DNA from: an uncultured Thermoplasmata archaeon
GTDB lineage: Archaea; Thermoplasmatota; Thermoplasmata; Lutacidiplasmatales; UBA184
Length of the DNA: 64,000 nt
Reading direction: 5' to 3'
Assembly: GCA_963696985.1 (NCBI GenBank)
Contig: CAVOMG010000001.1
Location: forward strand, 455,807 to 519,806
Part shown: in pieces, positions 3,201-58,556 of the stretch
Position numbering within the stretch: the first letter of the stretch is position 1
Layout: every line of letters begins with the position of its first letter
Notes under the pieces: model-generated
Seen by the model: the letters and a program-made list of their open reading frames with translations, nothing else
What the model was told of the DNA's origin: nothing
Databases searched by the model: none
Program-made: the position numbers and the translations under genes

Positions 3201-4498
3201 CCCGGCGCTCGACGTGCCGGTCGGGGCCGCGGTCGACTATTTCGCGAACGCCACCGGCCCGGACGGCCCGTACCTGCTCCACTGGACCCTCGGTCCGAAC
3301 GGGTCGGCGTTCGGCTCGCGGACCTCCTCGACGTACCCCTACCTCGTTTGCGCGAGCCCGCCCTCCTGCTCGCTCTCGATCGGGCTCGGCGCCGAGGACG
3401 GGAACCACCGTTGGCTCAATGTGACGTTCCCGCTCGATCCGGCCCAGCTCGGGAACGCGACCGCGCTCGGTCTATCGGTGCGCGCCTCGACGACCCGCGG
3501 GGCGACCCCGTTCGTCTTCCGGGGGATCGCCGACACCGTCGGGATGGGCTCGGTCTCGGTCGCTTGGACGTTCGGCGACGGCAGCACGGGCCCGGGCGAA
3601 TACGGGAACCACACCTACCTGACGCCGGGGAACTACACGGTGACGGCCGTCGCCACGGACCCGTACGGGGACCGCCTCATCCAGGATCTCGCGCTCGTCG
3701 TGACCGGAGTGCAGCGGTACTCGCCGACCGTGGCCGCCAGCTCGAACGTGACGAACGGGCTCGCTCCGCTCTCGGTGGGTTTCCAAGCGGCCGCCTCGGG
3801 TGGGGCGGGCGGACCGTTTGAGTTCACCTGGTCGTTCGGGGACGGGAAGATCGCCGCGGGGGCCTCGGTCTCGCACACCTACGGGAGCGCCGGCGAATTC
3901 ATCGCGAGCGCTACCGCGACCGACCGGCTGGGTGACCCCGCGAGCTTCGCCCTCGCGATCGACGTGTACGGCTCCACCTCGCTGGGACTCTCGGTCGCCG
4001 GCCTCCCGGAGTCGGTCGCCCCGGGAGCTTCGCTTCCGCTCTCGGTCCACGAGTCCGCGGCGTGCGGCGCCCAATCGGTCCCGAACTGCACGAGCGCCCG
4101 GATCCCGTTCCGGACCCTGGTCGAGGCGGCGGGGGTCCCACCGCCCTCGAACGGGTCGATCGCCGGTTCGGGCCATCCGATGGGCGCCTCGGGGTATTCG
4201 AACTTCACCCTGATCGCGCCCAACTCCGCCGGGAAGTACGTCCTCTACCTGTGGGCGAACGGATCCGGTTTCGTGGGGAGCGCCCGCACCCCGTTCACCG
4301 TCCTCAACGGCACCTCGCCGGTCGAGACCCAGCACACGCCCGGGGTCCCGTACCAGGTACTACGCGGGGATCGCGGGCGCCGCGGCGGTCGCGGCCGTCG
4401 GGATCCTGCTCGTCGTGCGGAGGCGGCGCCGGGGGCCGAAGGCCCCCGCTATCCCTTCACGACGCCGAGCGGGCGAAGGCGGGCGACGCGCCGGGTGA
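269..4498 (+). CDS. Secreted, C-terminally anchored S53 (sedolisin/kumamolisin) peptidase with a stalk of PKD/Ig-like domains; two frameshifts (~2545, ~4357)
   Basis: Signal peptide and prodomain; catalytic EEALD, SGDCG and GGSSLSSP; Ca site GWDPVTGLGSP; five (I/Y/W)xFGDG PKD motifs across ORFs 269..2728 and 2563..4545. A shifted frame from 4358 gives YYAGIAGAAAVAAVGILLVVRRRRRG, a TM helix with a basic tail, and stops at 4496-4498. Confidence 0.85.
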
Positions 4499-5906
4499 GC
4501 CCGGCGCCCTCGGCGACCCGGACCACCTCCTCGACGTCCTTGTAGGCGCCGGGGGCTTCCTCGGTGACCCCCTCGCGCGAGGCGGCGCGGACCACGATCC
4601 CCTGCTCCGAGAGCCGTCGGGTGACCTCCTCGTAGCGGAACTTGCGGACCGCGGCGTGGCGGGAGAGAAGTCGACCGGCCCCGTGGCACGAGGAGCCGAA
4701 CGAGCGCTCGAGCGAGGTGGGGAGTCCGACGAGCACGTAGCTCGCCGTGCCCATGTCACCGGGAATGAGGACGGGTTGACCGAAGCGCCGATACCGCTCG
4801 GGGACCTCCTCGCGCCCCGCGGGGAACGCCCGGGTCGCGCCCTTACGGTGGACGAGCACGCGCCGAGGCGCGCCGTCGACGCGGTGCTCTTCGAGCTTCG
4901 CGATGTTGTGGGCGATGTCGTAGATGACCTCGATCCCGGCCGGGTCTGGGTCGAGGACCGAGGTGAACGCTCGCCGGACCCCTTCGGTGATCAGCTGGCG
5001 GTTCGCCCAGGCGAAGTTCGCTCCCGCGGCCATGGCGGCGAGGTAGCGCTTCCCCCGCTCCGAGGCGATCGGCGCGCAGGAGAGCTGCCGATCCACGAGC
5101 GCGACCCCGTCGGCGAGGAGCGCCTGGTCCATCTCGTGGATGAAATCGGTCGCGATCTGGTGGCCGAGGCCGCGCGAACCGGTGTGGAGCATCACGACGA
5201 CGTGGCCTTGCTCTAGGCCGAGCGCCCCGGCGATGGTCGGTTCGAGCAGGGTGTCGACCGATTGGATCTCGAGGAAGTGGTTCCCCGAGCCGAGCGTGCC
5301 GAGCTGTCGGTGGCCGCGCTTCTTCGCGACCTCACTGACCGCGGCCGGATCCGCCCCCGCGAGGGCGCCCTGCTCCTCTTGGAACTCGAGGTCCTCGCGC
5401 CGACCGTGTCCGCGCTCCACGGCCCAGCGGGCGCCGCCGGCGAGCACCTCCTCGATCTCGGAGGGGTTGAGATTGAGCCCACCCTTCGAGCCGACCCCCG
5501 TCGGGACCTCCCGATAGAGCGCGTCGACGAGGGCCCGGAGCTTCCCCACGATCTGTTCCTTGCGGAACGGCGTGCGGAGCAGGCGGACCCCGCAGTTGAT
5601 GTCGTAGCCGATCCCGCCCGGCGAGACGACCCCCTCGTCGAGGTCGAAGGCGGCGACGCCGCCGACCGGGAAGCCGTAGCCGAAGTGGATGTCGGGCATC
5701 GCGTAGGCGCGCTCGCAGATCCCCGGGAGGGTCGCGACGTTCTTCAACTGCTGGAGCGACGGGTCCCCCTGGGCGGCCTCGAGGAGCGGAGCGCTCGTGT
5801 AGAGCCGGCCGGGGACGCGCATCCCCTCCGATTCGGAGCGGGGGATCTCGTAGGTGAACTCGTCGATGCGGACGAGGGTGGGCCCTTCCGGCACGCCGCG
5901 CGCCAT
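4449..5906 (-). CDS. rtcB: RNA-splicing ligase RtcB
   Basis: MPDIHFGYGFPVGG, GYDINCGVRL, LGTLGSGNHFLE, HRKGATRAF and HGAGR motifs; 485 aa. Confidence 0.97.
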   Translation of the reverse strand: MARGVPEGPTLVRIDEFTYEIPRSESEGMRVPGRLYTSAPLLEAAQGDPSLQQLKNVATLPGICERAYAMPDIHFGYGFPVGGVAAFDLDEGVVSPGGIGYDINCGVRLLRTPFRKEQIVGKLRALVDALYREVPTGVGSKGGLNLNPSEIEEVLAGGARWAVERGHGRREDLEFQEEQGALAGADPAAVSEVAKKRGHRQLGTLGSGNHFLEIQSVDTLLEPTIAGALGLEQGHVVVMLHTGSRGLGHQIATDFIHEMDQALLADGVALVDRQLSCAPIASERGKRYLAAMAAGANFAWANRQLITEGVRRAFTSVLDPDPAGIEVIYDIAHNIAKLEEHRVDGAPRRVLVHRKGATRAFPAGREEVPERYRRFGQPVLIPGDMGTASYVLVGLPTSLERSFGSSCHGAGRLLSRHAAVRKFRYEEVTRRLSEQGIVVRAASREGVTEEAPGAYKDVEEVVRVAEGAGLTRRVARLRPLGVVKG

Positions 5907-14496: not shown

Positions 14497-15965
<1,469 letters not shown>

Positions 15966-25900: not shown

Positions 25901-25935
25901 CGGAGCACCTGGGAAACCGAACGGGCCCGGGGGGA

Positions 25936-25970
25936 TGTCCGGGGAGCGCGCCCGGTCTGAGCGCCTCCCG
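25936..25970 (-). other. 35-nt tRNA intron at 59/60 (strict hBHBh')
   Basis: GGGGG-TTCG-AA^C-GGGAG...CTCCC-CGGA-CA^T-CCCCC: a 4-bp central helix with two 3-nt bulges. Confidence 0.92.
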
Positions 25971-26009
25971 TTCGAACCCCCGACCACCTGGTTAAAAGCC
26001 AGATGCTCT

Positions 26010-26040
26010 TTGTAGGGCCGACGGCGGAACCGATCGGCCG
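26010..26040 (-). other. 31-nt tRNA intron at 20/21 (relaxed BHB/BHL)
   Basis: GTAG-GT^C-GGCCGA...TCGGCC-CTAC-AA^A. The central helix is GTAG/CTAC; the outer side is an internal loop (AG opposite AAA) closed by the D-stem. Confidence 0.88.
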
Positions 26041-26120
26041 ACCTACCTGAGCTACGGGCCCGCCCCAGTTCCCGGGCGCTCCGACGAGTGCGCCGTATTT
26101 CAGGTTTCGCACGGAACGGC

Positions 26121-58455: not shown

Positions 58456-58556
58456 TGCAGGCGCCGGGAGTTCCGCCCGCAGGTCAGCCCTGCCGGGGTT
58501 TCGAACCCGGGTGGTCAGCTTGGAAGGCTGACATCCTACCGCTAGATTACACCTGC
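58456..58556 (-). tRNA. tRNA-Gly(UCC) with a 30-nt intron at 59/60
   Basis: Removing 58470-58499 gives 71 nt: GCAGGTG TA ATCT AGCGGTA GGAT G TCAGC CTTCCAA GCTGA CCAC CCGGG TTCGAAT CCCGG CGCCTGC A. Confidence 0.95.
58470..58499 (-). other. 30-nt tRNA intron at 59/60 (strict hBHBh')
   Basis: CCGGG-TTCG-AA^A-CCC..GCAGG GCTGA CCTGC GGG-CGGA-AC^T-CCCGG. Confidence 0.92.

Follow-up and report, generated by a model that had tools for sequence, protein, structure and literature searches.

The window analyzed here, a 64-kb stretch of contig C1 (CAVOMG010000001.1) from an uncultured archaeon of the class Thermoplasmata, carries on its minus strand a gene for tRNA-Lys(UUU) that is interrupted twice. 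When inserts of 31 nt and 35 nt are removed from 26061-25922, three exons remain that join to a tRNA-Lys(UUU) of 74 nt. An earlier note, made from the letters alone, had proposed that this 140-nt locus gives a clean 74-nt tRNA with introns at positions 20/21 and 59/60. The proposal was borne out by ARAGORN, which called the joined exons tRNA-Lys(ttt) with an acceptor stem of 7 bp, a D stem of 4 bp, and anticodon and T stems of 5 bp each. The anticodon TTT (UUU) occupies 25996-25994 on the minus strand within exon 2, which in addition to the anticodon arm includes A21, the 3' strand of the D stem, the variable loop, the 5' strand of the T stem and the T loop through A59. The CCA end is not encoded in the gene. 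Coordinates of these and the other features are collected in Table 1.

The short box TGAAATAC upstream of the gene is likely to be its TATA-type promoter element. It stands at a constant distance in all 30 congeneric loci compared, with an exact match in 24 and a one-base change in six, while its surroundings in these congeners are GC-rich and variable. Read on the plus strand, the locus showed only sub-threshold matches to Rfam (Guanidine-III, E 0.06; mir-H1, E 8.5), which we attribute to chance because they overlap the tRNA and its promoter.

Structure of the two splice sites

In both introns each cut site follows the second base of a 3-nt element, and the two sites of an intron lie 4 bp apart, although the 3' "bulge" of intron 1 faces two unpaired bases. 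The T-loop intron has the strict bulge-helix-bulge form, hBHBh'. Its outer helix is the 5-bp T stem, which adjoins the central helix and the 3' bulge, and there are no unpaired bases opposite the bulges. The central helix, TTCG/CGGA (UUCG/CGGA), is formed by U54-G57 with CGGA near the 3' end of the intron; all four positions are paired, one of them as G-U. The bulges are AA|C and CA|U (the bar marks the cut), and the inner helix h' has 5 bp. The junction of intron 2 can slide by one base, to 58/59 or 59/60, with an identical product. We placed it at 59/60 because of the bulge-helix-bulge rule, which is the only criterion that fixes it.

The D-loop intron is not a strict hBHBh' motif but one of the relaxed HBh' type. 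Its central helix, GTAG/CTAC (GUAG/CUAC), is paired at all four positions, GU|C forms a regular bulge on the 5' side, and h' is an inner hairpin of 6-7 bp. Opposite the 3' site, AA|A, stand A14 and G15, so that this site lies in a 2x3 internal loop with an outer helix of length zero (h=0). We looked at intron 1 for an alternative pairing that would make it strict and found none; the opposing bases are the invariant A14 and R15. This analysis agrees with the earlier description of a strict T-loop intron and a relaxed D-loop intron with AG opposite AAA, each with a 4-bp helix and cuts after the second nucleotide of the bulge.

Other registers of the locus also gave products acceptable to ARAGORN, among them a tRNA-Pro(cgg) and a 76-nt tRNA-Lys with a 29-nt intron. 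They were rejected because only the solution with 31 and 35 nt removed is colinear with uninterrupted orthologs and supported by covariation (see below). No Rfam family matched either insert, even at E<=10. A self-splicing intron of group I or group II, or a mobile insertion, was also considered and rejected, as the inserts are only 31 and 35 nt long and lack any Rfam match.

Conservation and distribution in the Thermoplasmata

The spliced product aligns without gaps to the uninterrupted tRNA-Lys(UUU) of two families of the class, f8 and f15, with 68 and 66 of the 74 positions identical, respectively. No other register of intron 1 reproduces this colinearity. The full-length locus with both introns was found in 29 of 36 congeneric species genomes, at 74-89% identity, and in three more it is cut by the end of a contig. 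Among these congeneric loci the exons are nearly invariant and the introns variable.

For the analysis of covariation, 39 distinct sequences were cut back to the ends that form the motifs; besides this genus they represent at least seven other families. Predicted partners paired in 95.3% of cells, compared with 84.0% after shuffling (none of 500 shuffles reached the observed value) and 35-56% when partners were slid. Nineteen pairs change on both sides. Three of the four pairs in the D-loop central helix covary, with GUAG/CUAC, CUAG/CUAG, UUCG/CGGA, GCAG/CUGU and CUCG/CGAG all represented, as do all 11 pairs of the inner helices (6/6 in the D-loop intron and 5/5 in the T-loop intron). The T-loop central helix is 98-100% paired across the set, with U-A/U-G switches on the intron side only, which is to be expected where the other strand is the fixed T loop. 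The locus, conserved with covariation across the class, is far more than a product of chance.

The gene appears to be the only one of its kind in these genomes. A search pattern that fits the interrupted as well as the uninterrupted form had one match per genome in 201 genomes of the class, save for two genomes with two. The earlier note had named an intronless copy elsewhere, together with the lack of a spliced tRNA, as grounds against its reading; no such copy was found in this genome, where the only other lysine tRNA is Lys(CUU). Of the lysine codons in 412 long open reading frames (ORFs) of this genome, about 7% are AAA, and AAA-heavy, low-GC relatives also retain the introns. With a single tRNA-Lys(UUU) gene per genome and AAA in use, the gene must be spliced.

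Of the 31 families sampled, most have the D-loop intron; it is missing from f8, f15, f20, f21 and parts of f4 and f17. The T-loop intron occurs in about 60 of the 71 genomes that the pattern could match, and is lacking only in f8 (six genomes), f15 (three) and one genome of f19. An additional intron at the canonical position 37/38 was found in f5, f9, f11, f16, f18, f22, f23, f24, f27 and f29, giving three introns in one tRNA. The class-wide patterns thus suggest a three-intron form in at least ten families, of which individual loci from three are listed in Table 1. Named relatives found by a scan of contigs for the locus pattern (four loci) are Thermoplasmata or Thermoplasmatota metagenome-assembled genomes, in keeping with the earlier assignment of the window to a Thermoplasmatota-type genome. 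That note had also called the arrangement unexpected in Thermoplasmatota. This stands when the arrangement is set against the literature rule for the enzyme type; within the class, however, it is the rule and not an oddity. Likewise, the introns are widespread in Thermoplasmatota genomes, a possibility the note had raised against their novelty, but we found no description of such introns in Thermoplasmata in the searchable literature, which is incompletely covered.

A two-intron tRNA-Lys gene nearly identical to that of family f17 was also found on a contig labeled Candidatus Aenigmatarchaeota (L053, 3382-3464). The label or the bin may be wrong.

Other interrupted tRNA genes and their detection

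The unspliced tRNA-Lys locus drew no call from ARAGORN, which finds only a tRNA-Ser in the window. It also had no match to the Rfam tRNA model, whether at the gathering score, at E<=10 on 600 nt, or in the whole-genome tRNA search. The prediction that standard finders would miss the gene therefore holds for both programs.

We searched this genome with a scanner that takes the T arm and acceptor stem as its anchors, cuts out inserts flanked by the motif and passes the product to ARAGORN. It identified 13 further tRNAs with introns of 29-34 nt at 59/60: Glu-CUC, Asp-GUC, Gln-CUG, Leu-UAG, Gly-UCC, Arg-UCG, Arg-UCU, Ser-GCU, Ser-CGA, Ser-GGA, His, Ala-GGC and Asn. For Glu-CUC, Asp, Gln-CUG, Arg-UCG, His and Arg-UCU, ARAGORN without its intron mode returned a false "uninterrupted" tRNA that borrows bases of the intron, and the Rfam scores of these miscalled genes are low (24-39 bits). 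The tRNA-Gly(UCC) gene, which lies in the window, had a partial Rfam tRNA match (58491-58551, 40 bits) and no ARAGORN call. Where position 57 is A, the central helix is reduced to three pairs and an A-G or A-C mismatch. D-loop introns were found in Leu-UAG, besides its intron at 59/60, in Arg-GCG and probably in Met-CAU, and introns at the canonical position in Tyr and Trp. One further tRNA, at C3:460316-460432 (+), received conflicting calls: the ARAGORN intron mode reads it as Ser(uga) with a 33-nt intron at 37/38, the scanner as Leu(uaa) with 26 nt inserted in the variable arm.

The 14 T-loop introns, including that of tRNA-Lys, showed no shared interior sequence: on average they score hardly higher than shuffled sequences, and the top-scoring pairs lie at the edge of the null distribution. 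They are not recent copies of one another, because their interiors are not detectably alike, and recent transposition of these introns was ruled out on this ground.

Counts of tRNAs by the Rfam model range from 27 to 30 in most congeners that are at least 92% complete (one has 21), from 23 to 31 in sister families, and from 38 to 42 in intron-poor families. ARAGORN and the Rfam model miss or miscall about one third of the tRNA genes in this order. As a consequence, tRNAs for Lys, Gly, His, Asn and others seem to be absent from genomes, and inferences on completeness or codon capacity go wrong. Some of these interrupted genes may already be reported by tRNAscan-SE 2.0. In Methanomassiliicoccus luminyensis, tRNA-Lys was not detected by tRNAscan, TFAM, ARAGORN or BLASTN (PMC4153887), which would be expected if the lysine tRNA genes of that species were interrupted in the same way.

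Table 1. Positions of the features discussed. Numbers without prefix refer to the window; C1 and C3 denote contigs of the same genome, and L and G numbers denote loci and genomes of other class members.
Feature	Sequence	Position	Strand	Remarks
Probable TATA-type box	TGAAATAC	26095..26102	-	34-41 nt upstream of mature 5' end
tRNA-Lys(UUU) exon 1	GGGCCCGTAGCTCAGGTAGGT	26061-26041	-	tRNA positions 1-20: acceptor 5' strand, U8 A9, D-stem 5' strand, D-loop through U20
Intron 1	CGGCCGATCGGTTCCGCCGTCGGCCCTACAA	26040-26010	-	31 nt, D-loop 20/21, relaxed HBh'
Exon 2	AGAGCATCTGGCTTTTAACCAGGTGGTCGGGGGTTCGAA	26009-25971	-	39 nt, positions 21-59; A21 to T-loop A59
Intron 2	CGGGAGGCGCTCAGACCGGGCGCGCTCCCCGGACA	25970-25936	-	35 nt, T-loop 59/60, strict hBHBh'
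Exon 3	TCCCCCCGGGCCCG	25935-25922	-	Positions 60-73: U60, T-stem 3' strand, acceptor 3' strand, discriminator G73
tRNA-Gly(UCC)		58456-58556	-	30-nt 59/60 intron, strict: T stem, UUCG/CGGA, bulges AA|A and AC|U
RtcB RNA ligase gene		4452-5750 (C1:460258-461556)	-	PF01139, 567.7 bits
EndA gene		C1:101146-102207	-	353 aa
Other tRNAs with 59/60 intron (beyond Lys and Gly-UCC)		C1:124013-124115, 146055-146157, 432388-432494, 432528-432672, 893099-893205		
Other tRNAs with 59/60 intron (beyond Lys and Gly-UCC)		C3:165514-165626, 183541-183660, 309938-310044, 347042-347147, 356161-356268, 411628-411744, 747679-747782		
tRNA-Arg(GCG)		C1:270521-270627	+	32-nt intron after base 17, D-loop, relaxed
tRNA-Met(CAU), probable		C1:553870-553972	+	26-28-nt D-loop insert, register approximate
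tRNA-Lys(UUU) with three introns		L048 (G055), L050 (G050), L052 (G044)		Introns at 20/21, 37/38 and 59/60; three other class families

Splicing enzymes, competing explanations and known systems

The genome has a single EndA gene, in which PF01974 and PF02778 each match in two stretches. Its product aligns over the full length with the Archaeoglobus fulgidus enzyme 1R0V (E 3e-29), its best structural relative. The C-terminal unit has the catalytic Tyr/His/Lys motifs and the N-terminal unit lacks the Y and H; by sequence the enzyme is of the two-unit alpha'2 type, a predicted homodimer. Neither separate alpha and beta subunits, nor a three-unit polypeptide, nor an extra subunit gene was found in this genome. 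Likewise, 58 of 61 relatives each have one two-unit EndA gene without a further subunit; no match was obtained in the remaining three, whose completeness is 59-71%. The A. fulgidus variant 3P1Y, into which the crenarchaeal specificity loop was grafted, aligns worse to EndA at the graft site, and an alignment of 21 class members revealed no indel that tracks intron load. As the earlier note had anticipated, the sequence alignment thus points to an alpha2-type and not a broad-specificity enzyme, with the sole EndA being alpha'2 and free of a specificity-loop insertion.

A basic turn, K/R-S/T-G-R/K (RSARK here), was observed in the catalytic unit of EndA in nearly all class members (L057-L076). 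The EndA of family f15, which has a tRNA-Lys free of introns, has lost this turn, and in A. fulgidus it is shortened.

An RtcB gene lies about 20 kb from the interrupted tRNA-Lys gene, and RtcB would be the expected enzyme for joining the exon halves. We regard the locus, with a probability of roughly 0.9, as a single functional tRNA-Lys(UUU) gene with two bulge-helix-bulge introns that would be cut by the alpha'2 EndA and whose exons would be joined by RtcB. Transcription from the TATA-like box about 40 nt upstream would give a precursor of about 140 nt or more. EndA would then cut after the second base of each 3-nt bulge, at sites 4 bp apart, leaving 2',3'-cyclic phosphate and 5'-OH ends. 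RtcB would join the three exons to a 74-nt tRNA, with CCA added afterwards. Because the 3' site of intron 1 lies in a 2x3 internal loop, its cleavage would have to rely on a ruler-like placement of the second active site, with A14/G15 perhaps engaged elsewhere. The T-loop introns are mechanistically unsurprising, as a strict motif at any position is the expected substrate of any archaeal EndA. The real puzzle is the conserved relaxed site in the D loop.

Several observations weigh against this reading. The 3' site of the D-loop intron is an improper bulge, and the outermost pair of the central helix is unpaired in 15 of the 39 sequences analyzed, which enlarges the internal loop to 3x4. When EndA was aligned with the A. 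fulgidus and M. jannaschii enzymes, no insertion was found at the site of the lysine-bearing specificity loop (CSL/ASL), in the N-terminal part of the catalytic unit. In vitro, the alpha'2 enzyme of A. fulgidus poorly removes the D-loop HBh' intron of Methanopyrus kandleri tRNA-Glu (PMC5829648). Transcription, cleavage, ligation and recognition of the relaxed 3' site are steps that we infer from sequence. Finally, the assembly is 75.7% complete, which leaves room in principle for a second copy here; the congeners that are 92-100% complete show one.

The enlarged loop, the missing insertion and the published inefficiency of the A. fulgidus enzyme would also suit a different explanation, in which EndA cuts the T-loop intron, while the 3' site in the D loop is left to a different nuclease or depends on a partner protein of EndA or on the tRNA body having folded first, so that the alpha'2 enzyme would not suffice by itself. 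We consider this unlikely. The 4-bp spacing and the composition of the 3' site, with two variable bases and one fixed, are kept throughout the class and form the signature of the EndA ruler, and neither a second endonuclease gene of the EndA family, in 58 relatives, nor a candidate helper was identified. It is very improbable that the D-loop insert is retained in the mature tRNA as a protruding hairpin, with the T-loop intron alone being spliced. Position 20/21 is admittedly the part of the D loop that tolerates extra bases, and the 3' site is on paper a poor substrate for EndA. However, G18, required for the elbow contact of the mature tRNA, is tied up in the central helix, and a hairpin as such has no need of a 3-nt bulge at a distance of exactly 4 bp from the 3' junction, a feature kept in more than 20 families. 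The insert has also been lost cleanly in several families, leaving a standard D loop. Given the incompleteness of the assembly, one might also suppose that the locus is a decaying pseudogene or an assembly artifact and that a normal tRNA-Lys(UUU) gene lies in the unassembled quarter of the genome. We give this hardly any credence, since the same interrupted gene, and only it, is found in independent assemblies that are 92-100% complete, its exons are near-invariant, its intron helices show compensatory changes and the upstream box is conserved.

Introns of this kind are known from other archaea, with 20/21 and 59/60 among the listed non-canonical insertion sites (PMC4090602). According to published work, introns are few and invariably canonical in euryarchaea whose enzyme is of the alpha4 or alpha'2 type, and relaxed introns are removed only by loop-bearing enzymes of the (alpha-beta)2 and epsilon2 types (PMC4090602, PMC5829648). 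On genomic evidence, the abundance of such introns in a lineage with a predicted alpha'2 enzyme contradicts this accepted rule. The A. fulgidus alpha'2 endonuclease (PDB 1R0V/1RLV/2GJW) has the same two tandem units, with the catalytic unit C-terminal, but it is described as acting on strict motifs only, and the introns of its host are few and canonical; the EndA of our genome would serve about 16 non-canonical introns, some of them relaxed.

The D-loop intron most resembles that of the M. kandleri pre-tRNA-Glu(UUC) (Kaneta et al. 2018, PMC5829648), which is likewise inserted before A21 and has a relaxed motif: the helix has 4 bp, and of the two bulges the 5' one is good and the 3' one disrupted. 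M. kandleri, too, is a euryarchaeon with an EndA that lacks the specificity loop, and its tRNA has more than one intron, the other being at the canonical position. The enzyme of M. kandleri is an (alpha-beta)2 heterotetramer, unlike the two-unit alpha'2 enzyme predicted here. Moreover, the M. kandleri case concerns one tRNA in one species, whereas here the D-loop intron is found in most families of the class and is combined with a T-loop intron.

T-loop introns at 59/60 that standard finders miss have been described in ARMAN-2 (Candidatus Micrarchaeum; Fujishima et al. 2011, PMC3239211), which its authors placed as a deep branch within the Euryarchaeota. There, pre-tRNA-Cys has an intron at 59/60, pre-tRNA-Pro has introns at 53/54 and 59/60, and more than half of the tRNA genes are interrupted (PMC3239211). 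The EndA of ARMAN-2 is, however, a three-unit epsilon2 enzyme with a specific loop that explains its broad specificity, and we found neither the third unit nor the loop here. The Thermoproteales (Sugahara et al. 2008, Fujishima et al. 2010), as reviewed in PMC4090602, have tRNAs with up to three introns, at sites that include 20/21 and 59/60; a large share of their tRNA genes is interrupted and a single insertion site recurs in numerous tRNAs, all of which is similar to the situation here. Their EndA, by the same account, is an (alpha-beta)2 enzyme with the crenarchaeal loop, in contrast to the alpha'2 form in our genome. Thermoproteales introns are also reported there to share sequence often, indicating recent transposition, whereas the interiors of the introns studied here are dissimilar and the tRNA-Lys introns are old and class-wide.

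A broader interpretation, to which we give even odds, is that the class breaks the coupling between enzyme architecture and introns. The ancestor of the Thermoplasmata would have been heavily interrupted, its loopless alpha'2 EndA would have handled relaxed HBh' motifs, the cultured lineages (including f8 and f20) would have lost their introns secondarily, and published "missing" tRNAs, such as the tRNA-Lys of M. luminyensis, would be failures of detection of this sort. If so, the ancestral state would have included introns at 20/21 in the D loop, at 37/38 and at 59/60 in the T loop, with up to three in tRNA-Lys(UUU) and about one third of the tRNA genes still interrupted in this order, and the rule on substrates would have looked valid because the cultured, well-studied lineages had lost their introns. 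For enzymology, hundreds of genomes rely on non-canonical and relaxed introns with a plain alpha'2 EndA as their sole candidate enzyme, and the substrate rule can now be tested directly with one recombinant protein and one transcript. For evolution, two insertion sites kept class-wide and a third added in many families provide a dated, phylogenetically rich series, with which one can ask if tRNA introns date from ancient times or were gained, and what makes them persist.

The window also includes a complete archaeal 16S rRNA gene at 14498-15965 (-), with no match to 23S or 5S rRNA in its 64 kb. This arrangement fits the unlinked rRNA genes reported for Thermoplasmata and their relatives (PMC4153887).
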